Shown here: piece after piece, positions 27,677 to 44,886 of the stretch
Numbering within the stretch: position 1 is the stretch's first letter
How the letters are laid out: the number at the start of each line of letters is the position of its first letter
Translations under genes and position numbers: made by a program
The notes under the pieces: model-generated
Seen by the model: the letters and a program-made list of their open reading frames with translations, nothing else
Databases searched by the model: none
What the model was told of the DNA's origin: nothing
From: Fistulifera solaris
Taxonomy: Eukaryota
DNA length: 64,000 nucleotides
Direction of reading: 5' to 3'
Assembly (NCBI GenBank): GCA_030295235.1
Contig: AP026131.1
Location: 1,426,001-1,490,000 of the forward strand

Positions 27677-30600
27677 CTAGTAACTGCCCTGTGGCTGGAA
27701 CGTCGTTGCGGTGGACTCTTCACCCAGCATTGTAGAAAGCGCTTGGCTCACCAAAGGATCTGCCGCGTACATGCGAATCCGTTCACTGGTTGCCGGCATT
27801 CGCATTTCAAAATACTGTTGGTCGTTCAAATTGGATTTGCGCGCGGCAATCAAAGCATCCTTAATGGCGTAAAAGACCTGTGGAAGAAAGAAAATATGAA
27901 AAGTTTTAGCAAACGACGTGTCAAATCAACAAGCGATCAACCATCTTGAACTCACAGATGTTCCCAAAACAAATGGTGGTTCACCGACAGCTTTGCTGCT
28001 GTGAACTGCGAACGGATTATCAACATTCTCGAGAAGCGAAACATTGAAAATTTCTGGAACATCATTGAAGGCAGGTATCTTGTAGGTTCCGGGTCCGGCT
28101 GTAAAGACAGTGCCCCGAGGACCACACCACCTATGATCGTCGTCCGAGTAAATGACTTCTTCCATCGTACTCCAGCCCATTCCCTGAATAAATGCACCTT
28201 CAATCTGACCGATATCGATGGCTGGGTTGATACTAGATCCGACGTCCACCAGGACATCAGCGCGAAGCGTCTTATGGTTACCAGTTAGTAGGTCGAGTTC
28301 TACTTCCGCACAGGCAACGCCCTGCGTGAAGCTGTTAACAAACAGAAAACAATGTTAGATGACGAACTGTCAAGGAGAACAAGTATTCATGACTTGCTTC
28401 TACTTACTAGTTGAAGGGATGCCCTTTCCACGAGTTCTCGGGTGCATCGTCAGGAAAGTCCTCGGGCTTGTTTTTGGTCCAATCAAACCCACACCTACTA
28501 GTGTCAAGCGCGAAGAAACCATGAGCGGAAAGATCTATCCTTTCCATGTGAGCAGCCAAAGCAATTTCTTTGAGCGTTGCGTCAGGGCCAAGCTTATGCT
28601 GAATAGGTTTAATGCGAGCAATTATCTGGCGACAAGCGTCCAAGGTTGCCATTCCGTACATATCCGTCGACATGGACGCCGCGGTAGGAATAGCATTGGG
28701 AACTTTGTCACTGCTGCTATCATTCACATAAACATTCTCCAGCGGGATTCCAAAAGCTTGTGCCGCGACTTGACAGACCTTCGTGTGAAGACCTTGTCCC
28801 ATTTCCGTTCCTCCGTGACTCACTAAGACAGTACCGTCTGTATACAAGTGAACTAGCGCCCCTCCCTGGTTCATGAACTTCGCAGTAAACGCGATTCCGA
28901 ATTTCGTTGGCAGAACGGCAAGTCCTCGCTTGACCCATTTGTGCTTGGCATTGAAAGCGTCGATTTCCTTGCGACGTTCAACGACATTTTGATCCCTGTA
29001 TATACGATCCCACATGGATGGCACATTCCACTTTCCTGAAAATTGTTCTCCAATTATCATGCCGAAATGCATGTGATGACCAATTTGATAAAAGTTATCT
29101 TTGCGAATCTTGTCACCGGGCACCTTGCATGCTGTCGCAAGGTGGTCGATCACATGTTCAGCAACAACCTGTTGAAAAGCAATTCAAGTTTAGTTACGAA
29201 AGTGTAACGCTGCCATCTACGCCGAAACAGATCTTCTTACCATGCCTTGGGGACCCTAAACAATGAATAGCATTTGCAACATAGTGAGAAATGACATTGT
29301 GCAAGACGACCACAGCCGAAGGTCAACGTATTTACTACTTACTCCAAAGCCTCGAAACGCTGTGTGGGGAGGCTGAACGGTCTTGCAAGGTACACCCTCA
29401 ATCCTAAAGCGCGTTGTATGTGTGAGTGACGAAAAACAAGAATCAGCCATTGTATAGACAAAGTGTGATCGTACCTGAAATGGGGATAATAATAGCATCC
29501 GTCTACATGAAAAAGAGCTCGATCCATCACTGGACTGGATAAGTCCAAGCCTGACCCAGCATTGTTGAATAGTTTGGCATCGAAAGCAACAAGCTTTGCA
29601 CCATTTTCCGTAATTTCGGCACTGGCTGAGTAATAGGTAATAAAACAGTGACGAGTACCTGTCGTCTCTGTCGACAAAAAGTTTACAGCTAAGTGAGCGG
29701 TGTGAATAGCGCCATCTTTTTCAGTTTTGCACTTACTCATGTCAACGTCACGTCCTAGTGTCAAGCGTACAGGTCGATTGGATATCTTCGCAGCGACAGC
29801 CGCAGCGCAAGAAGCAAAGACGCTCCTCGTTTCCTTTCCTCCAAAGCCGCCACCCATTCGCTTCATACGTACTACGACTTTATTCGCTGGCGTGCCAGTT
29901 GCTGATGCAGCAAACATCTGTGTTTTATTGGTGGCTTGGGTGGAGCAATAAATCGTCAAGTCATTTTCGGAGGGGATGCACAAACTACAGTTAGTTTCCA
30001 AATAAAAATGCTCTTGGGCACCCGATTTGAAAACTCCCGAAACTTTAACAATGTCTCCGACCTTTGGTTCGCCCTTGGAAATCCTCTGTGGTGGCCAAAC
30101 TGTTAAGAACGCTTACGTCACCACGTTCAAGTCCGTGACGTCCAATTTCGTAGAAACTTCCCGCTTCAATCGCATCTTCAATAGAAACAATTATCTTTTT
30201 GGAACTAGCAGCACCGTACTCAATCTTACAACTACGGGCGCCCAATTCAGCACTTTCCAGAGTTTCCGCGACGACGATAGCGAGAACCTGCCCGACCATT
30301 CGAATCTCTTCACCCGGTGGAAGGAATACGGTTTCGTCCTTGACGACTGGGCCATACTCGTTCTTTCCGCCAAGTTTGATCAAGTCGTCGTAGCCATAGA
30401 CCGCTACAACGCCCGGTATCGAAAGTGCAGGAGCCGCATCCAAAGATTCAAATGTCACCCCGCATTGCTTCGCTTGGACCAGATACGCTTGTAAGGAACC
30501 GGGAGGGAGTGGGATATCATCAACGTACACGGCTTCTCCCGTGCAATGAAGAGGACCCGACATGTGTGTAGCTGCTTTTCCCACTTCGGCCGCCACTTTT

Positions 30601-32760
30601 GTCGATTCGCTATCCAGGTCCACCGAGGGCAAGCTTTTGTCTTCAAGACCACTGGCCACTTTCGGAGCAGGATACGTTTGAACTCCGTAAAACTGGGGCT
30701 TTGGTTTGCTCAAAAACGTCTTGGCACCACTCATTTCTTGATCATCTACAGCCGGGGCAGTTGGCAAGTCACCAACCAATGACAACAACGAAGGATCTTC
30801 CTTAATCTTTTGAATGTCTACCTGCAATTCCTCGACGCACTGCAAGTAAAATTTGTAAAGGAAAGACGCCGCAAGTGACATGCGAAACGCTGCTTGACCA
30901 CCGGGAACACTCGGTGGGAGCTTGAGCTCGTTCAGTAACGTCTCCCGTGCCACATCGAATGTCGCGGCACAGAATTCGGCACCAATTAAGACAGCAGCCG
31001 TTTGACTGGCCATGACGGTCGTCGGAGCCATACCTCCAAACGCCAATGCCGCGTCAGCAATTTTGTACGTTCCATCTTGCACCTGTAACTTGATGCGCAT
31101 CGATGCGGTGACAATACTAATATCATCTTCTCGACGACGCGCCTGCTTGAATGGCTTGTAATACTCCAAAACAGGAGCCACCAAAGGAATCTCGACACGC
31201 TCCACAATTTCATTGGATTTCAAATCGACGGTACGGTATTTGAGAAAGAACTCCGATACCCGAATCGTTCGACGCTGGATGCTTTCGTCACTGAGCGATG
31301 TCAATACGAGTGTGGCGCCACTCGCCGCCAACATCGGATTCATGTCGGAAATGGGACTCGCCGTGACCAAGTTTCCTCCCAAACAGGCAACATTGCGAAT
31401 TTGCGTGGAAGCAAACCACCGGAGCATGTCATGAATGGGCAGAGTCGTGCGCAACAAACGATCTTGTTGCGACCATTCGTGACATTTCTGTTGAATTGTA
31501 CTCAACGGACAACACGATCCAATCATCAAACAATTGTCAACGACTTCCATGCCGTAGATTTCTGTAATTCGATCCGAAGGACTCACCAAACGCGGATACA
31601 CGGCTTGCTTGAATTTCGTTTCAATGCCCACTTCGGTATTTCCCACCACAATTTTGCATCCACCTGCAAATTCTTTCAACAATGAAAGTAATTCCACGAA
31701 TGTCGTCGGCTTGAACCAGGTTCCGCCGGCTTGATATTCCGTCGTATCCACAACCATGAGAGATTGTGTCAATGCTTCCGATTCCTCTAGTAACTCTGCC
31801 GGAAACATTTGATTGGCTTGTTGACTCCAATCTTCCTTGTGTTTCATAAAGGTCTCTTGATACATTTGTTGTTTGTCTTTTGATGAGGAAGAACAGCACT
31901 GGTCGTTGACATTGCATTCCTGTTGACACGTGTCTCGTTCGGGACAGTCCCGACACGGCGTCCCACACGGTCCTTTCACAGCATCATCACACAACGACCG
32001 CGCTGCATCCCAAATGGGACGATATCCGGTACAGCGACACAAATTTCCATCCAAATGTTCTTCCAAATAGTCCGTGGAAGGATGATTCGTCAACAATGTA
32101 TAAATGCTCACAATGATCCCGGGTGTACAGAATCCACACTGCGATCCATGCAAATCGACCATGGCTTGTTGGACGGGATGCAATTGGGTGTGCACGGAAC
32201 CAATCCCTTCAATGGTGGTAATATGATATCCATCTGCGGCCAAAATGGGCATCAAACACGCATTGGCGGCCATGTGTCTATTAGAGTAGAAATAGATAAG
32301 GAGAGAGTGAAGAGAAGAAGGAGAATGCAAATGTGAGCCTATATCTTTCACTGCATTTCTTCTTTAAACGCACACACACAATCTTTTGTACGTACTGTAA
32401 CGTCCCGTTACTACTATTCTTCTTGGACAACATGACGGTACAAGCGCCACAGCCTCCTTCCGCACATCCCAATTTGGAACCTTTCAATTGCAACACGTCT
32501 CTCAAGAAGGAAAGCAGTGTTTGATTCGGACGCGCTTTTACAGCCTGTGCGAGAGGAACTTTCCGTCCATTGACAAACAGAAGAGGCGTCGTGCGGTATC
32601 CTACGAGTATAGAATAAATAAGTGAGTATAAAATTCTTTGTATACGCTGGCAACTCTTCTAGATTCTTTTCGTTCGTTCCTTCGTACCTTTCTTTTGATA
32701 CAAGGGAATGCGTGACACATCTTCATTTTCGTAATACAACGTGGTTTGATTGGGTGGCAT
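27677..32760 (-). CDS. XDH: Xanthine dehydrogenase, multi-exon
   Basis: 2Fe-2S motifs [23 protein letters not shown] and [12 protein letters not shown] motifs [16 protein letters not shown] and [10 protein letters not shown]. Moco motifs [31 protein letters not shown] and SSKAVGEPP. Ends FQPQGSY*. Confidence 0.97.
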
Positions 32761-33252: not shown

Positions 33253-36200
33253 ATGTCACACAACAACAACAATCCCCTCCATATTGGTATTCTCGGCCTC
33301 GAAGTTTACACGCCGCGGACCTACATACAACAAACCGAACTCGAACAGCATCTCCAAGTTCCGGCGGGGAAATTTACGATCGGCTTGGGACAAGAAGGTT
33401 TGGCCGTGACCGGCGATGTCGAAGATATTAATAGTATTTGTTTGACGGTCGTGCATCAATTGCTCGAAAAGTATGTACGGAGTACAATTGTTCTGATGTG
33501 TAAATGTCACTAAGTATTCACTCAACTCATTCAAACTCACTCTCTCGAATAGATACAACTTGGATCCACAGTCGATCGGACGTGTCGAAGTTGGTACCGA
33601 AACATTGATTGACAAATCGAAAAGCACCAAAACCGTCCTCATGGAATTGTTTCCCGACAACAGTGATATCGAAGGTGCGACCATTGTCAATGCGTGTTAT
33701 GGAGGAACGGCGGCGTTCTTGAATGCGTGTGCGTGGTGTTCACTGGACGAACGACTAGCGATTGTGGTGGCGGCCGATATTGCCACCTACGCGGCCGGAC
33801 CGGCGCGTCCGACGTGTGGCGTCGGGGCCGTCGCTGTCTTGGTCGGACGCGATGCGCCGTTGGTACTTGGTGAGAGAGCGACGCATGCGTCGCATGTGTG
33901 GGATTTTTATAAACCCAATCCTGTCAGTGAATATCCCGTCGTGGAAGGTGCCTTATCGCAACTGTGTTACTACCAAGCCCTGGAAGATTGTTACGCCAGA
34001 TGGTCGCAAAAGACAAACACGACGGCGACTACACCGGATTATTGGGTCTTTCATGCCCCCTACAACAAATTGGTGCAAAAATCCTACGCGCGATTGTTTT
34101 ATATTGATTCTTTAAAGCAAGATAATACGCCTCTTGAAAAATGGCGTGATATGGATCGCATACAATCGTATCATGACAAAGAATTAGAGGCGGCATTGAA
34201 ACAACACAGTGCCTCCGCGTATCAACAAAAATTGACCGATGCCAATCACGCGAGTCAACAAGTCGGAAATACGTATACGGCCTCAGTCTTTTGGGACTCT
34301 GTAGTTTGATCAGTCGTCGCTCGTTGGTGCCGGAACAGCAGATTGCCGTCTTTTCGTACGGTTCCGGGGCACTCGCGACCTTGTATTCCTTGCATGTGTA
34401 AGTATTGCTTGTTGCGGTGTGTGTTTGTGTCGTTCCAAATAATTTCGTGCTACTCATCCTAATCTCTTTTTTATTCGAAACAGCCGCACACCGACGCAAC
34501 AAACCGAATTCACGACGGAACGGATGCAGCAGGTATTACAACTGGAGACACGATTGTCGATGCGCGAACAAGTCGCCGCGCGCGAATTGGATTTGGCATT
34601 GGATACAAGGGCCAAGATGCATACGAGTGGCGTGCCCTATACACCTTTCTATCCGCACGATCGATTGTTTCCAGGAACGTATTATTTGACGCACATCGAT
34701 GCGCAATGGCGACGACATTACGCCCGAACACCCGTCGGGCCGATGACGCCGTGGGACGGTGTCGTGCGTCCACTCCAACCGGCTCCCTCGATTCGATCGT
34801 TTGCGGATGAAACTGATCTTTCGGCGTGCTATATTACTGGGACAGCGGCGGGTTTGCCTGGACAAGAACAAGTGTTTCGTGCCGACAATTTGGAGCGTTT
34901 ACTGAAAGGTGAAAATTGTATTTCGGCTGTTGATGTTAAAGTGCAACAATCCATGTTGGACAAGAATATCATTTTATTGAAAAGAATCCCGACCAGACGG
35001 CTCACAAGATACCCTTGACGGAGACAACCGATATGATTCAATTGGCGGCGCAGCTGGGGGCATTCGATTTGACGGAACGGTATGGGGTACCGAGTGGTTT
35101 GGCCAAAACTATGGATGTGGCGGCACAAGTCGCGGTTGCGGCTGGATTGGAAGCCTTGAAGAATGCTGGGCTGGTTTCGGGACGATCGAGCGATTCGTCC
35201 GAATGGAAATTGCCGGAAGCTTTGCAAGCCGATACCGGTGTCGTGTACGCGAGTTCCTTTCCGGCCATGGATGCGGCCATTGGAGAAGTCGTCCGATATT
35301 TTTCCTCTTCCACTCCAAAAGATAACCATCAACTCATTCAGGCACTCCGTCAGCGAATGTTGGATGTTCAGGGTACCTTGTCGTCAGAAGATGAAGATGC
35401 TTTGGCCCATTTGAAACAGCAAGCAGCAATGACGAATGGGCACAAAACAACCACCCGCTACGCGTTCGACCGTAAGTTCTTGTTTCGGGTCCTTGTGTTG
35501 GGAAATGCACAGTTGGCGCAACTTGCAGGTTGCAAAGGCCCCAACACGCAGACCAATGCAGCGTGCGCCGGAACAACACAGGCGATCAGTATGGCTCACG
35601 ATATGCTAGTAGCAGGACGGGCGGCACGCGTCGTCGTGATAGCGGGCGACAATGCGGCAGGACCGACGCTACTTCCTTGGCTGGGCAGTGGTTTCCGTGT
35701 ATTGGGCGCTGCGACCTGCAAATCCACAGTAGAAGAAGCGGCTCTTCCGTTCGATAAGCGGAGATCGGGTATGCTGTTGGGCGCAGGAGGCATTGGACTG
35801 GTTTTGGAGACGGCCCCAAGCATTCGATTGCGACAACTCAGCACTCTTCCCTGCGTACGATTGTTGGCAACTCAGTACAGCAACTCAGCATTTCACGGTG
35901 CGGCTTTGGATCGCCATCATATTGGCTCCGAACTGGTTCGCTTTCTCAACGATATCCAGAAGCGTTTTGGAATCACCAAGACGCAGATTGCTACGGAAGG
36001 TGTATACTTTTCTCACGAAACGTGCACGCACGCATCTGATGCATCGTCTTGTGCCGGAAATGAAGTTGCGGCATTGCGTCAAGCTTTTGGTGACGATTTA
36101 CCGAAGCTGTTGATTGTCAATACGAAAGGTTACACAGGCCATCCCATGGGCGTCTCATTTGAGGACGTCGCCGCAGTGGCGGTTCTGCATCATCAACAGG

Positions 36201-36349
36201 TCCCTGCTATGCCAAATTACCGTGTTCACGATGAATACCTGGGCGACCTAAATTTGTCAAAGGGCGGACCCTACAGCTGTAAGTTCGCCCTCCGCTTCGC
36301 TGCTGGATTCGGAAGTCAAGTGGCGTTTGCGCTTTATGCCAAAGTTTAA
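33253..36349 (+). CDS. HMGS: HMG-CoA synthase fused to a C-terminal beta-ketoacyl synthase (KS) domain; two introns (~33472-33552, ~34397-34483) and several apparent indels
   Basis: HMGS motifs GKFTIGLGQ, EVGTET, NACYGGTAA, HAPYNKLVQKS, GNTYTAS, FSYGSG and GTYYL. KS motifs ITGTAAGLPG, GPNTQTNAACAGT, PFDKRRSGMLLG, SHETCT, KGYTGHPMG and GFG. The HMGS C-terminus and KS N-terminus share ORF 34524..35018. Confidence 0.92.
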
Positions 36350-39504: not shown

Positions 39505-42500
39505 CTAAAAGGCACCCGCTTCCGCCATGTCCAAATCACCCGTCGACATGACATCGTAAATGCAAGATTCGCGCGTCTCTTCCGACCAGTCAGCGCAAGC
39601 CATCGCGGCATCTTCGAAGCTCACCAACGATTCCGACATGCGACGATTCATCAAGGCCAAAGGAGTGGGCATCTGGCACAACTGAGGATATTGCGGGCCT
39701 TCGACTTTCTGGAACAAGTTGCCGTCGGTGTCATGAACTTGCCAGCTCAATCCGAATTCATTGTGATCGGCGTGAACTTGACCGTTGCGTCCAATGAGAC
39801 TACCGTCCGTGAACGCACCCATAAGACCGACACTATCACCAAAGCCGTCACTGTGGGCGTTATCGACTTCGACGGCCAAGAACTCGTTGAAGACCTTGAT
39901 GACAATCACACCCATGTGTCCCAAATCAATCTCGAACTTGTGACGCTTGGTACCGAAGTGGGTCAAAGTCAGAGGGAATCCACCGACGGTGGCGGGCAAT
40001 TCGGCACCGGCAACACCGTTCAGGTAGTAGTAAGCACGAGTGCCGACTTCCAAAACATCATTGCCGATGCGAACCGCGGCATCCGAGATGAACGACCAGT
40101 CGTCACGGATCTTGGTGCGAATGTGCAAGTCGAGACCGGCTCCGTTGTGGAAGGTGGGAGTCTTGACCAACACCAAATCACAAGCACCGTGGAAATCGTA
40201 AACTTCTCCCATCCAAGTCTTCAAGTGAGGATCACCGTAACCACCGCCTGATTCGCCGTCGCCAATCGAGTTGGCCGTGGGGAAACCGACCGTAGGATCG
40301 TTATCAATCGTCGAGCCAGTGGGAGCAGCAACCGGGGTGGAGCTGACTTCGGTCGGCGATGCGACAGGTGTGTCTTCGGGAGTGCCTTCCGGAACGAGGC
40401 ATTCGGGGTAGTCCATGGAAGCACCGATGACCGTCGATGCGGTGTTGTTGAGCGAAATGCTGCCGGAGTAACCCCAGTCAGCGTGAATCTGAATGTTCTC
40501 TCCAGTGGCGCCCTCAGGGAGCTCGAAACAACCTTCCCATGTAATGACCTTGCCGTTGGGGTCGCGCGTGAGAGTGATTCCAGGAGCTAGGGGCTGAATG
40601 GCACTGTCCGAGCACGAGTAATCCTTGAACCAGGCCTCGGTGTTGCCAAGTTGAATTCCGGGAGCGGCTTGGACTTTGATGCACATCGCACCCGCCTTGC
40701 AATCGGCAAGGCAGTAAGCAGCGGCTGTTTCCACAAACTCAGGGGCTGTGGTGTCGTTCTTGCCGGCGTTGAAAATCTTGAAGCACTCCTTGTATTTCTC
40801 GGGTGTGGCAATGAGGTTGGAACTGGTAAAGTTGAGGACTGGTCGGACTTCGTTGCAATCCATGACACCATCTCCGTCCGAATCAATATCAAGCTCTTCG
40901 CATCCGCAAATTCCAGCATCAGTTTTGTCAGGGTTCAAAGGGCATTCGTCCTCACAGTCATAAACGCCGTCTCCGTCTGTGTCGACGTCGGTGGTCTTGG
41001 AGGGGTCCATGGGACATTTATCATTACAGTCAGGTGTTCCATCATTGTCCGAATCCGTGTCTTGAACATCGCATCCGCATACCCCAGGTTCGATCTTGTA
41101 AACGTCGTCAACACACAAATCATTGCAGTCAGGCGTTCCATCGCTGTCCGTATCCGTCTCCGGCTCGCCGCATCCGCATAGTCCTTCCTCTGTCGTCTTC
41201 TCGGGATCGTTGGGGCAAACATCATCGCAATCGAGAACTCCGTCCGAATCACTATCCACATCCGGCGAACCGCAACCGCATGTTCCTGGTTCTGTTTTGT
41301 CAGCGTCTTCAGGGCACTTGTCATTACAGTCGGGGACTCCGTCGTTGTCTTTATCATTATCCGGTGTGCCACATCCACACGCCCCAGGAGCGATCTTCGA
41401 AGGGTCGCTTGGACAATCATCATCACAATCAGGGGTTCCGTCGCTGTCAGAATCCGTGTCTGCTACGTTGCAACCACAGACGCCTAGATCGTTCTTTGTG
41501 GGATCATTGGGGCAGGAATCTTCATGGTCGCATTTTCCATCAGCGTCGGCGTCCGCATCAACCATGCCGCACCCACATTTGCCTGGGTCGGTCTTCTTGG
41601 GGTCCGCAGGGCACTTGTCGTTGCAATCAGCCGTTCCGTCATTGTCCGCGTCCACATCCGTCTTGCCACAGCCGCACTGCCCTGGGGTAATCTTTCCTTG
41701 ATCAACAGGGCACTTGTCGTTACAGTCAGGAACACCATCTCCATCTGAATCAACGTCTGATGTTCCACAGCCACATTCCCCTGGCGTAATCTTGTTGGGA
41801 TCGGCGGGGCATGTATCCAAACAGTCTGGCGTACCATCACCGTCCGTGTCCGTTTCCATTTGGCCACAACCGCACTTTTCTGGGCAGGTTTTTACAGGAT
41901 CGTTAGGGCACCTGTCCTGGCAATCCACTGTTCCATCACCGTCCGAGTCTTTTTCAGATTGACCGCATCCACAAATTCCTGGAACGATCTTGCTAGCATC
42001 TTGAGGACACTGATCAACGCAGTCAGGGGTTCCATCTTTGTCAGAATCGACATCCGAAAATCCACAGCCGCACACCCCTGGGGCGATCTTTTTAGGATCA
42101 TCAACGCAATCATCGTCGCAATCCATGGTGCCATCCTTGTCCGAATCCTTGTCTGGCTCTCCACAACCACACACCCCTGGAGCAACCTTGGTCTTGTCGA
42201 TGGGGCATGCATCTATGCAATCCGGTGTTCCGTCAAGGTCAGAATCTGTTTCACTCACACCGCAACCACACTTGCCCTTCTTGTTCTTGTTGGGATCCAA
42301 CGGGCACTGGTCGTTGGCATCACATGTTCCATCGTTGTCCGAATCTTGCTTGCCACATCCACAGAGGCCTGGCTCAATCTTCGTAGGATCATCTTGACAG
42401 GCGTCTTTGCAGTCAGGGGTTCCATCTTTGTCGCTATCAACATCACTGACTCCGCAACCGCACACGCCTGGTTTCGTCTTGAGAGGATCGCGCGGGCATT

Positions 42501-44078
42501 CGTCTTTGCAGTCGGCCGTTCCGTCCAAGTCCGAATCTCTGTCTGAAACACCGCATCCACAAATGCCAGGCGTAATTTTGAGGTTGTCCGAAGGACATCC
42601 ATCTTTGCAGTCAGGTGTTCCGTCCGTGTCTGAATCTCGATCCGGAACTCCACATCCGCACTGCCCGGGAGTAAGTTTGGTTCGATCTCGAGGGCATCCA
42701 TCCTTACAGTCAGGCGTTCCGTCGCCGTCCGAATCCACCTCTGAAGCTCCGCATCCGCAATGTCCTGCGCATGTTGTCTTGTTTCTATCGTTGGGGCATA
42801 CATCCAAACAGTCAGGCAAACCGTCACCGTCCGTATCCGTTTCCGGTCGGCCACAACCACAGCGTCCGGCACTTGTAGTCTTGAGGGGATCGTTGGGGCA
42901 GACATCAAAACAGTCCAAAGTTCCATCGCGATCCGTATCAATGTCTTGGCGTCCACAACCACATCTAGGACACGCTACCAACTGAGCAGCACATCCCGTT
43001 TGCAATTGAGCTTCGGTGGCAGCACAAGTGCAGCCCTTGAGACCGCTGGTAGTGGAAACGAATCGGTTGTTGGGGCAAACATCGCAAAAGTCGGGCACAC
43101 CGTCTCTGTCAGTGTCAATCTTGTCGTCGCCTCCAGCGCATCTGTCACATCCATCAGGGATGCCGTCTCTGTCGGCGTCCATTCTGTCATTGTGTCCAGG
43201 GCAACGGTCAACACAATCCGCAACACCATCACGGTCCGTATCTGTATCCGGGACTCCGCAACCGCACTGCCCTGGCTCCATCTTGTTGGGATCCAAAGGA
43301 CACTTGTCGTTGGGATGAACACCGCAGCATTCGCCTTTGGTCCAGTCACAGCACATTTTGCCATTCAACTTTGTGGAGCGGACGTAAGGGCACGCACGTT
43401 CCCAGTAGGACCAGTAAGCTTTCTCCTGGGACCAATTCCACGTCGGGTTTCTGGCCTTGACATCGTAGCGAGTGCCGTGGTCTCTGATCAAATAATCTTT
43501 CGTGTTAGGACCCCAGGGAGAATAATCGCTTCTCTTGCAGTCGACCAACACATCATGTTCACGCATGTGCCCTCCGCCAGTTCCTTTCGGACCGTACCAG
43601 GCGCTCGAATCAATGGTGATGCGCACCCATGGGTTGGTTGGCGAACAAGTGCGATGACAGATGGTCACACGACGAGAGCCGCATTTGCTGCTGCCATCTG
43701 GATCGGCAAGTCCATAACTGTCTTCTGGGTTGCAAATTCCTGTAAATATAGCGCCATCTGAGCCGTTGTCGTTGAGTTCCGAGCACACTAGCCCGGAAGC
43801 GCACGCCATGCCCTTGACACTTGTATACTTGTCGGCATTCGTGTTGTAAGTAACTTGACAAGATTGACCTTGAGTTCTCGCGGGAGCGCAACCGGAAAAG
43901 CTCTTTGTACTGGAATTTCGGAGAAAGCGCGGCGTCACCTGTGATGAAAAAGGAAAAGCACTGTCAGGATTCACGGTTCGCGTGCAAATGTTTTTTTTCA
44001 AAGGCTCGCACTTACCTGAGCATCTGCAACAGAGTTGAGGAGAGCCGCAGCGAACAGCAAATTGCTGATGAATTTCAT
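39505..44078 (-). CDS. Large secreted protein with ~22 thrombospondin-type-3-like Asp/Cys repeats and a C-terminal GDPH/VWD-like domain
   Basis: Exon 1 44078-44016 encodes the signal peptide MKFISNLLFAAALLNSVADAQ; GT-AG intron to 43939. Repeat unit DxDxDGxxDCxDxCPxDPxKxxPGxCGCG. C-terminal GDPHLKTWMGEVYDFHGACDLVL. Confidence 0.9.
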
Positions 44079-44886
44079 TCTTTGCTTTGATATTGTTTAC
44101 TCAAAGAGAAAGGAAGAGGAAAACGAGGACAACGTTTTGTTGATTTCAAAAGTTGTGAGGCAAAGTCGGTTCTCCGTACAAAGTCATTGGGCACGAAAGG
44201 GAAGACGGGTAGTGAATACGGATGACCTGTCGGGCTTTGTTGATAAGGACTAGTCTTTTGTTTTCTTTATAGTTTCTCAGTCTTGCTCTTTATTATTCCA
44301 GCAACATTAGTATTATTTCGTCCCTTCCTGAATCACTAATCCTTGATCACTGATTAGTTTCATTGTGGAAAATGAAGTACATGCAAGATCTATGATAAAA
44401 CGATGGGTTCACTGTTTACGACTTTGTGTACGAAAACGATTTTTGGCACGATCGCTTCCATAAATATCTTGGGGTTTTACAGGCAACAAGTGACTCTCAG
44501 ACACGTGGAGTTACATGTACTATACAATTTTGTGATATCAAGGGAATAAGGGCCTTGAAGTGTTTTTTCGCCTCTACTACGCACTCGACACTCCACATTC
44601 AGCTGACTACTGCGGACAAATTTTGTCAGCTTTCGCTACATTGCACTATCGGGCTCATTTTTGTACGATCGCCTTGGGTATTCTAGTATTAGCTTTAATG
44701 TTGAGCATGTATCACGGCTGACGGCTGACGGCTGACTAAGACCTCGCAATTGCCAGCGAATTTTCAATCTTCTAAAGACCAGTTGTTACATAACGGAGAT
44801 ACCAGGTGGAGAATGGAGAAGAGTCAAGAGTCAAGTCACGCGCATCGCGGATCGTGATCGTAACGCGAAGACAAACAAATACTCTG

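Follow-up and report, generated by a model that had tools for sequence, protein, structure and literature searches.

We observed that the genome of Fistulifera solaris encodes an HMG-CoA synthase (HMGS) fused to a ketosynthase (KS). We are close to certain that this fusion is real, that it is conserved and that the active site of its KS is intact. The gene lies on the forward strand at positions 33253-36349 of the window, i.e. of the whole 64,000-nucleotide stretch of contig AP026131.1 that was analysed, and it is a single three-exon gene encoding HMGS, a linker and KS. From its sequence, the locus is the Fistulifera copy of the stramenopile HMGS-KS gene. Its predicted product is one cytosolic polypeptide of ~975 residues, composed of a eukaryote-type HMGS and of a KS of the FabF class of roughly 520 residues.

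Gene structure and integrity

The coding sequence starts with an ATG at 33253 and ends with a TAA stop at 36347-36349. Its parts are the following.

33253..33470, forward strand: exon 1, start codon and first 72 codons of the HMGS N-terminal domain (PF01154 with E 7e-19 on 33253-33468; GTATGT donor at 33471)
33471..33552, forward strand: intron 1, 82 nt, GTATGT..TAG, i.e. GT..AG (sequence reading; homologue alignment unbroken across it; retained in DNA contigs)
33553..34397, forward strand: exon 2, HMGS core with the presumed catalytic Glu, Cys and His, and a one-base assembly deletion in the T run 34289-34292 (PF01154, PF08540, TIGR01833 at 294 bits)
34398..34483, forward strand: intron 2, 86 nt, GTAAGT..CAG (sequence reading and homologue alignment)
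34484..36349, forward strand: exon 3 in full (sequence reading)
34484..34727, forward strand: first part of exon 3, C-terminal end of HMGS, ..HYAR, to 34727 (PF08540 positions 207-279 of 280 against residues 8-81 of the piece from 34485)
34728..34826, forward strand: linker, 33 residues, in frame (within open frame 34443..35018)
34827..36349, forward strand: KS domain, CYITG.. from 34827, and stop codon, with a one-base assembly deletion in the A run 34976-34979 (PF00109; FabF alignment; AF2 model)

The end of HMGS, the linker and the start of KS all lie inside open frame 34443..35018. An earlier note on this DNA had placed the in-frame junction within 34524..35018, the ATG-to-stop form of the same frame, and this is what we find. 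It had also named a stop between the two domains as evidence against a fusion; in the genome, the reading frame runs open through the junction.

An artefactual fusion, or a pseudogene disrupted by two frameshifts, is scarcely credible. The window sequence does contain two frame breaks, in the T4 run at 34289-34292 and in the A4 run at 34976-34979, but both frames are restored in the contigs of all four sequencing runs (two studies), which have one extra T behind 34288 and one extra A behind 34979. Hence, both breaks are one-base assembly deletions, i.e. assembly errors, and the organism's gene is intact. Relative to variant metagenome contigs of a related environmental strain, 34 of the 40 listed differences are synonymous (16 of 18 in the KS part), and the gene is under purifying selection. 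The synonymous changes, the open junction and the existence of fused homologues derived from transcripts all argue against the artefact, which is refuted as far as the DNA evidence reaches. The contigs from runs guessed to be RNA contain both introns and no joints. They thus behave as DNA and are uninformative on transcripts. Relatives express the fusion as a single transcript, as shown by several fused homologues that are MMETSP transcripts of type:complete (e.g. P0005, P0016, P0018 and P0043).

The HMGS half

Pfam families HMG_CoA_synt_N (PF01154) and HMG_CoA_synt_C (PF08540) match across the four HMGS pieces, and one 246-residue piece alone exceeds the cut-off of the NCBIfam model of eukaryotic HMGS (TIGR01833, 294.4 against 286.2). 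The motifs VGTET, NACYGG and VFHAPY contain a Glu (33599-33601), a Cys (33695-33697) and a His (34052-34054) that we take to be the catalytic residues, and conservation of these columns reaches at least 90% across 87 fused sequences. The HMGS of homologue P0014 is 45% identical to the human and Brassica enzymes, with TM scores of 0.92-0.95 (Foldseek), while the HMGS half and the polyketide synthase (PKS) cassette enzymes CurD and PksG share 20-24% identity. These comparisons indicate that the HMGS half is of the CoA-using type of primary metabolism, i.e. of the mevalonate pathway, and not of the PKS cassette type.

The KS half

The KS piece matches Pfam ketoacyl-synt (PF00109) with 31.2 bits against a cut-off of 20.8; the Pfam scan did not report PF02801 on this piece at E ≤ 0.01. 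It carries the motifs NAAC, SHETCT and NTKGYTGH. The active-site residues within them are Cys209 (35564-35566), His359 (36014-36016), Lys396 (36125-36127) and His401 (36140-36142), numbered on the 469-residue piece; all 121 fused sequences share these four residues without exception. They align with the active-site residues of the solved FabF structure 4jrh, also by hhalign, and thus form the KAS I/II triad with its Lys. The KS is therefore apparently catalytically competent and of the FabF class, with a Cys-His-His triad and Lys. The earlier note had claimed that the triad is kept and that this is not a KS0 devoid of Cys; both claims hold, and the Lys can be added to the first.

The AF2 model of the KS (pLDDT 91.4, pTM 0.89) has the two halves of the thiolase fold. 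It superposes best on FabF (Z 45.4, 361 aligned residues, rmsd 2.2; VIA), followed by actinorhodin KS (Z 44.0), FabB (Z 41.4), a FabY-like KS (31.0), thiolases (~24) and type III PKS (~23). FabF and FabB (KAS II and I) have the same fold and the same Cys-His-His and Lys, yet share only 20-23% identity with this KS. It scores 104.5 bits with the equivalog fabF model TIGR03150, against a cut-off of 493.75, and is not FabF proper. Matches to FabH models are confined to a stretch of 37-39 residues surrounding the Cys (19.9 bits against 292.1). Relative to FabF, the KS has a helical insert of ~48 residues, and a Glu replaces the first Gly of HGTGT (SHETCT). We rejected a FabY-like initiating KS, given a Z of 31.0 against 45.4 for FabF and no match to a FabY-specific model.

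One more residue is invariant in the 121 fused sequences, a Phe (35258-35260) that a profile-profile alignment places at the Ile of the SGIGG motif of FabF. The I108F change in FabF restricts the enzyme to short acyl chains. The Phe at this pocket position may thus hint at a short primer.

Conservation of the active site bears on the idea that the KS half has no catalytic role and serves as a dimerisation or regulatory module. Both KS and HMGS enzymes form dimers, which would suit such a module. Dead domains usually lose their catalytic residues, however, and here all four, with their surrounding motifs, are invariant from diatoms to oomycetes, making this explanation very improbable. It is also quite improbable that the KS is thiolase-like, i.e. 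that it condenses two acetyl-CoA without decarboxylation and passes acetoacetyl-CoA to HMGS as a covalent version of the archaeal complex. Thiolases belong to the same fold superfamily (Z ~24), but the best fold matches are FabF and type II PKS KS, the Cys-His-His triad, the Lys and both Thr of H-x-T-x-T are the decarboxylating set, and Pfam revealed no DUF35-like part. In its favour, the part of a thraustochytrid preprint that deals with coupling both steps gives a thermodynamic logic for doing so (10.1101/2020.11.20.391870).

Distribution and previous records of the fusion

The earlier note called for a survey of stramenopile HMGS architectures. Among the matches listed, all 120 longer homologues contain both enzymes, the KS family being joined by one or more HMGS families; both PF01154 and PF08540 occur in most of them. 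The Fistulifera KS is 46-70% identical to that of these 120 listed fused homologues, the best match being at 70%, and it clusters with diatom KSs in the tree. The hosts are diatoms, brown algae, other ochrophytes and oomycetes; besides diatoms, they include Ectocarpus, Ascophyllum, Scytosiphon, Phaeothamnion, Pteridomonas, Saprolegnia, Phytophthora, Pythium, Plasmopara and Hyaloperonospora. Unfused HMGS also exists. For example, the chrysophyte Spumella has a complete-looking HMGS of ~464 residues. Truncated models may account for the HMGS-only entries of Seminavis, T. pseudonana ('partial'), Ditylum and Haslea. We considered whether the fusion is universal in stramenopiles; complete-looking HMGS of ~464 residues, including that of Spumella, leave this unsupported.

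The HMGS-KS architecture is not new. The earlier note suspected that it had been noted in other diatoms, and Table 2 of Morris et al. 2009, PLoS One (PMC2705460) indeed lists it as Ps128154 (P. sojae), Tp260768 (T. pseudonana) and Pt16649 (P. tricornutum); the gene described here is another diatom's copy of the same two-enzyme architecture. The table entry records a multifunctional protein and gives no function for it. The P. tricornutum protein 16649 is Phatr3_J16649. Databases already annotate the HMGS-KS architecture, and later diatom papers treat the gene as a plain HMGS. Our literature search, of open-access scope (subscription journals excepted), found neither a functional assignment nor any experiment, biochemical or genetic, on the KS half. 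The suspicion that no function had been assigned was thus borne out, the 2009 table entry being all that this search retrieved.

Genomic context and origin of the KS

In the full-length AF2 model (pTM 0.57), the linker, which corresponds to residues 483-505 of homologue P0014, has a pLDDT below 50 and the domain-domain packing is without confidence. No AT, ACP, KR, ECH, thiolase-family or DUF35 domain matches the gene at the Pfam gathering level. Likewise, we found no PP-binding or ECH domain in 25 of the 94 open frames of at least 90 aa between 21 and 48 kb, a scan that a small or intron-split ACP could escape. This agrees with the earlier report of no ACP or ECH gene nearby, for the gene itself and ~12 kb around it, among the 25 of 94 frames scanned. 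The neighbouring frames match an SDR, pieces of xanthine dehydrogenase and an NAD-glutamate dehydrogenase. One neighbouring frame of 1531 aa has a weak, sub-threshold mucin-like match.

Sequence comparisons place the KS in the clade of the second KS (hereafter KS*) of Type R Pfa-like lipid synthases, where this domain is labelled 'CLF'. Its closest non-eukaryotic relatives (35-47% identity, E about 1e-90 to 1e-115) are all internal domains of KS-AT-KS*-ACP-KR-DH megasynthases, which presumably use ACP-bound substrates, and the closest of them in a quick tree are Asgard and Thermoplasmatota sequences. The motifs NAAC, SHET.T and NTKGFTGH are common to these relatives. The megasynthase genes adjoin those of a PPTase and of an acetyl-CoA carboxylase, and the bacteria encoding them also have true FabF genes, above the equivalog cut-off. 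Shulse and Allen 2011 (PMC3098273), in describing Type R, give the organisation as KS-MAT-CLF-ACP(3-6)-KR plus PPTase, call these enzymes 'secondary lipid' synthases and label the related domain 'CLF'. The Fistulifera gene shares only the KS* domain with them: excised from the context of an ACP-bearing megasynthase, this domain is joined to HMGS in a gene that has no carrier (ACP), AT or KR domain.

The 'CLF' label does not fit this KS, because the Cys is kept. KS0 and CLF domains are without an active-site Cys. We rejected a CLF identity given that the Cys is present in the Fistulifera KS and in nearly all of 145 representatives (one has AAW for AAC). We also rejected a KS0 identity given the invariant Cys and the absence of PP-binding and ECH domains from the gene and the 25 scanned frames. 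These observations weigh on a further explanation, in which the KS is mainly a malonyl-thioester decarboxylase or acetyl loader, resembling a KS0 or a chain-length factor, that gives HMGS its acetyl donor. We regard it as improbable. PKS cassettes do pair an HMGS with a decarboxylating KS, and the label given by Shulse and Allen would also suit it. Against this, the Cys is invariant, the HMGS half appears to be the CoA-using primary type rather than the cassette type, and acetyl-CoA is not limiting as acetoacetyl-CoA is.

Some eukaryotic members of the clade stand alone (in Prymnesium, Pterocystis, Gloeochaete and Ceratiomyxa) and others have weak methyltransferase-like regions attached. As a consequence, the clade is not tied to HMGS. 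This would fit a KS that is the condensing enzyme of another pathway, making a short polyketide or a specialised lipid on a separate carrier, and that was fused to HMGS for co-expression, shared dimerisation or localisation. The nearest relatives, as parts of Pfa-like 'secondary lipid' synthases whose product is unknown, point the same way. Yet all 120 longer homologues listed, from diatoms to oomycetes, retain HMGS as the fusion partner, neither the gene nor the scanned neighbouring frames revealed an ACP, an AT or a reductive domain, and fused enzymes usually catalyse linked steps. We thus consider this other-pathway role unlikely, if a serious contender.

A possible role in acetoacetyl supply

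The product of a KS is a β-ketoacyl thioester, the kind of substrate taken by HMGS. Because the fusion partner is HMGS and the active site is intact, we infer a role in acetoacetyl supply: the KS may make an acetoacetyl thioester by decarboxylative condensation for the fused HMGS. This is the most economical reading, and we hold it tentatively. The KS cysteine would take up an acetyl group. The KS would then decarboxylate a malonyl thioester and condense it with the acetyl to give an acetoacetyl thioester, which the fused HMGS, with further acetyl-CoA, would turn into HMG-CoA. Acetyl-CoA carboxylase would thereby pay for an irreversible entry into the pathway, which would replace or complement the unfavourable reaction of thiolase. 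In this scheme, the substrates of the KS, their carriage by CoA or by a separate ACP and any transfer from domain to domain are inferred, and the use of CoA over ACP thioesters is an assumption, since the close non-eukaryotic relatives all reside in ACP megasynthases. The absence of ACP and AT domains from the fusion (Pfam) counts against acetoacetyl synthesis, and we know of no FabF-class enzyme that works on malonyl-CoA alone. Furthermore, published pathway maps of diatoms (e.g. a figure legend of PMC12942017) place a separate acetoacetyl-CoA thiolase upstream of HMGS, and a bypass is thus not obviously needed. The KS clade members that occur apart from HMGS, the unfused HMGS of Spumella and the low confidence of the modelled packing between the two domains also weigh against this reading.

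Three known systems resemble the proposed one. NphT7 of Streptomyces catalyses the reaction proposed here, giving an acetoacetyl thioester and CO2 from acetyl and malonyl thioesters for the mevalonate pathway. It is FabH-like with a Cys-His-Asn triad, i.e. from another branch of the superfamily, whereas the present KS has Cys-His-His, ranks FabF-class enzymes first and does not belong to KAS III. The thiolase/HMGS/DUF35 complex of the archaeon Methanothermococcus thermolithotrophicus also couples an acetoacetyl-forming enzyme physically to HMGS. Its components, among them a true thiolase and a DUF35 scaffold, associate non-covalently, while the Fistulifera protein is a covalent fusion with a KS of the decarboxylating type and no DUF35 match. 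Finally, the KS of mammalian FASN, also of the FabF class, has been proposed to give HMGS a malonyl-derived C4 unit, and according to Carroll et al. 2018 (PMC5900750), cholesterol synthesis draws on its acetoacetyl units. The evidence presented there is indirect and pharmacological, and that KS acts on the ACP of FASN and is unfused to HMGS.

A broader scenario follows these lines, and we advance it with still more caution. In many stramenopiles, the first enzyme of the mevalonate pathway might be an acetoacetyl-thioester synthase of the FabF type that depends on malonyl and is fused to HMGS, and haptophytes, centrohelids, glaucophytes and some amoebozoans might do likewise with a stand-alone KS of this clade. 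The KS would have been recruited from the lineage of Pfa-like lipid megasynthases, and this would be a third independent answer to the unfavourable thiolase step, beside the archaeal complex and NphT7.

Implications

Among the hosts of the fusion (diatoms, brown algae and oomycetes) are major primary producers as well as pathogens of crops and fish. Their sterols, and partly other isoprenoids, derive from the mevalonate pathway, and diatoms are being engineered for terpenoids. The pathway maps in the diatom papers run from thiolase to HMGS and leave out a conserved and apparently active fused KS. If this KS does something else than supply acetoacetyl units, a conserved enzyme of unknown role resides within a central gene. 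If it supplies them from a malonyl thioester, entry into the pathway would become an irreversible step linked to acetyl-CoA carboxylase, altering views of flux control and of engineering targets. The fusion would then be a compact two-domain module for HMG-CoA production, and KS inhibitors might offer a lever on sterol-independent isoprenoid synthesis in oomycetes.

Gene structure and integrity

The fusion gene (33253-36349, plus strand) joins a eukaryote-type HMG-CoA synthase (HMGS) through a linker to a ketosynthase (KS) and is built as follows.

33253-33470, plus strand: exon 1, opening with ATG at 33253
between 33470 and 33553, plus strand: intron 1, canonical ends (GTATGT..TAG)
33553-34397, plus strand: exon 2
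between 34397 and 34484, plus strand: intron 2, canonical ends (GTAAGT..CAG)
34484-36349, plus strand: exon 3

Pfam assigns the first four pieces of the translation to HMG_CoA_synt_N and HMG_CoA_synt_C, and the last piece of 469 residues, weakly yet above threshold, to ketoacyl-synt. With NCBIfam, a 246-residue piece alone passes the eukaryotic HMGS equivalog (294.4 against a cut-off of 286.2), and the KS piece falls far short of the fabF models (104.5 against 493.75). As the earlier note described, the junction lies within a single open frame: 34443..35018 covers the HMGS end (..HYAR, 34727), the beginning of the KS (CYITG.., 34827) and the 33 linker residues that separate them.

Two homopolymers interrupt the frame, T4 at 34289-34292 and A4 at 34976-34979, and an aligned homologue runs unbroken through both. 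Since contigs from all four public runs carry an extra T behind 34288 and an extra A behind 34979, the breaks are single bases lost from homopolymers in this assembly, and the gene is intact. Three runs come from one study and the fourth is an independent wetland metagenome; one run may be the source sample of the window itself. The contigs retain both introns without joints and so represent DNA, silent on transcripts of this organism. Against the window, variant metagenome contigs show 40 listed differences, of which 35 fall on third codon positions and 34 are synonymous, each site taken singly; nine further sites lie outside these counts. Within the KS, 16 of 18 sites are synonymous. Purifying selection acts on both halves.

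Compared with the contigs of the four runs, this assembly loses one base in short homopolymers; false frameshifts of this kind may also affect other genes of the window. A xanthine dehydrogenase/aldehyde oxidase-type gene (27929-32658, minus strand; Fer2, Fer2_2, FAD_binding_5, CO_deh_flav_C, Ald_Xan_dh_C and MoCoBD_1/2 domains) is split over several frames, which could reflect introns or further assembly indels. Elsewhere, 39508-44100 (minus strand) is one open frame of 1531 residues whose sole match is a weak, sub-threshold mucin-like C8 domain; its G+C content (0.53-0.54) is above that of the rest of the window.

Two intact active sites

The HMGS Glu, Cys and His are all present in the window gene. 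We modelled a full-length Fragilaria homologue (P0014; pLDDT 88.8, 87 sequences), whose HMGS domain superimposes on Brassica and human cytosolic HMGS (TM 0.92-0.95, 45% identity) but is only 20-24% identical to the PKS-cassette enzymes CurD and PksG. The HMGS half is the enzyme of primary metabolism.

For the KS, the window piece aligned with the KS regions of 120 listed fused homologues gives 121 sequences, and all 121 keep Cys209, His359, Lys396 and His401 (numbered on the 469-residue piece) as well as the Glu and the two Thr of the S-H-E-T-x-T motif. A search of solved structures matches the four numbered residues to the FabF Cys, first His, Lys and second His (4jrh, E 1e-14). The AlphaFold2 model of the piece (pLDDT 91.4, pTM 0.89, 76 aligned sequences) was compared with representative structures; Z scores were 45.4 for FabF, 44.0 for actinorhodin KS, 41.4 for FabB, 31.0 for FabY, 30.9 for yeast FAS KS, about 24 for thiolases and about 23 for type III PKS, and the Foldseek ranking is consistent with this order. 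The KS is a FabF-class condensing enzyme of the decarboxylating type. With FabF-class structures on top, it is neither KAS III/NphT7-like nor a thiolase; with its Cys invariant, it is no Cys-less KS0 or CLF, in line with the earlier note, where the retained Cys argues against a pure KS0 decarboxylase.

Compared with true FabF proteins of three bacterial genomes by profile-profile alignment, the fusion KS has an extra helical insert of about 48 residues, and the Ile of the FabF SGIGG motif is replaced by an invariant Phe (35258-35260). In FabF, an Ile-to-Phe change limits the enzyme to short chains, and Foldseek matches of our model include a structure of B. subtilis FabF I108F. The Phe is a weak hint that the KS may take a short primer.

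Distribution of the fusion

Every one of the 120 listed homologues that exceed the KS piece in length contains the HMGS families and the KS together. Their sources are many diatoms, Ectocarpus, Scytosiphon, Ascophyllum, Phaeothamnion and Pteridomonas, and, on the oomycete side, Saprolegnia, Phytophthora, Pythium, Plasmopara, Hyaloperonospora and Globisporangium. Several of the sequences stem from transcriptomes, as open frames labelled complete, which documents a single mRNA carrying both halves in relatives. The top match to the window KS is only 70% identical, so this diatom has no close relative in the collection searched. The fusion is not universal, since complete-looking, unfused HMGS of about 464 residues occur (P0395 and similar proteins, one from the chrysophyte Spumella). 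HMGS-only entries from Seminavis, T. pseudonana ('partial'), Ditylum and Haslea (P0281, P0289, P0320, P0321) may reflect gene models cut short or incomplete cDNAs.

The architecture, which the earlier note suspected had already been noticed in diatoms, is tabulated by Morris et al. 2009 (PMC2705460) and recognized in database names (a Plasmopara entry reads 'hydroxymethylglutaryl-CoA synthase, beta-ketoacyl synthase, thiolase'; others 'Ketosynthase family 3 (KS3) domain'). Papers using Phatr3_J16649 call it HMGS and leave the KS unmentioned. Full-text searching of the openly available literature found no functional study of the fusion.

Relatives and origin of the KS

An exhaustive search of cluster representatives gave 472 proteins at E <=1e-30 to the window KS. 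The best non-fusion relatives are domains, 35-47% identical, at positions about 1000-2000 of proteins of 2000-3900 residues. Four of the seven long proteins scanned are apparently complete and read KS-AT-KS*-ACP(n)-KR-DH-PPTase, with an enoyl-reductase-like domain at the start of one; the remaining three appear cut short and contain parts of this architecture. KS* denotes the second KS of Type R Pfa-like megasynthases and its eukaryotic relatives; the megasynthase domains share the NAAC, SHET.T and NTKGFTGH motifs. The Type R secondary lipid synthase was described as KS-MAT-CLF-ACP(3-6)-KR plus PPTase, product unknown (Shulse and Allen 2011, PMC3098273). 'CLF' is a misfit for a domain in which the Cys is kept.

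At least 572 loci of this kind occur in species-representative genomes of Chloroflexota, Actinomycetota, Acidobacteriota, Myxococcota and others. In Candidatus Oscillochloris fontis (L030:5033-21057), a Type R Pfa-like megasynthase of 3167 aa (KS-AT-KS*-ACPn-KR-DH) is flanked by genes for an acyl-CoA-dehydrogenase-like protein, a PPTase and three subunits of acetyl-CoA carboxylase; two further genes of this genome pass the cut-off as true FabF. Four named megasynthases (P0130, P0133, P0137, P0141) belong to MAGs labelled as Heimdall-, Thor-, Asgard-group and Thermoplasmatota archaea, and locus L032 is of the same type. Megasynthases in archaeal MAGs are unexpected, such archaea not being generally known for fatty acid synthesis on an ACP, and binning errors are possible.

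Stand-alone KS* of 550-700 residues in Prymnesium (haptophyte), Pterocystis (centrohelid), Gloeochaete (glaucophyte) and Ceratiomyxa (amoebozoan) (P0150, P0126, P0138, P0144) extend the clade beyond stramenopiles. Environmental eukaryote-side proteins (P0142, P0146, P0247; also P0170, P0140, P0177, P0164) carry 300-600 extra residues, some of which match SAM-methyltransferases weakly (E 2e-4 to 2e-2); the same KS thereby has a second fusion partner.

We built a quick maximum-likelihood tree (72 rows, short search, some forks open) and placed its root at the first KS from three of the megasynthases. Eukaryotic KS* form a single clade (32 rows, SH-aLRT 99), within which the stramenopile fusions, Pterocystis and a few unnamed proteins make a 19-row clade (support 100). 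Archaeal megasynthase domains join the eukaryotes in a 41-row group (support 96), separate from a 26-row group of mainly named bacterial loci (support 98).

Proposed function

We observe a conserved single polypeptide, under purifying selection, in which both active sites are intact and the KS fold is FabF-class. The mechanism we consider most likely, and hold tentatively, is that the KS would condense with decarboxylation to give an acetoacetyl thioester, which the fused HMGS would then use. It is suggested by a partner that consumes the kind of product a KS makes, by a coupling kept in 120 of 120 listed homologues from diatoms to oomycetes, and by the thiolase step being a known thermodynamic weak point of the pathway (about +26 kJ/mol; thraustochytrid preprint 10.1101/2020.11.20.391870). 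The same logic was proposed for mammalian FASN, where KS-derived acetoacetyl units are reported to feed cholesterol synthesis (PMC5900750). Several observations argue against it. The nearest relatives sit in ACP-bearing megasynthases, whereas the fusion has neither carrier nor acyltransferase; members of the KS clade also exist alone or joined to other partners; a separate thiolase is drawn in diatom pathway maps (PMC12942017); and the P0014 model predicts no fixed arrangement of the two domains (pTM 0.57; linker 483-505 pLDDT <50). Full-text searching of the openly available literature did not encounter this mechanism.

The window gene is a further member of a known fusion family that lacks a functional explanation. 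That the KS may supply the acetoacetyl thioester to HMGS, as the earlier note proposed, is a reasonable and directly testable idea.
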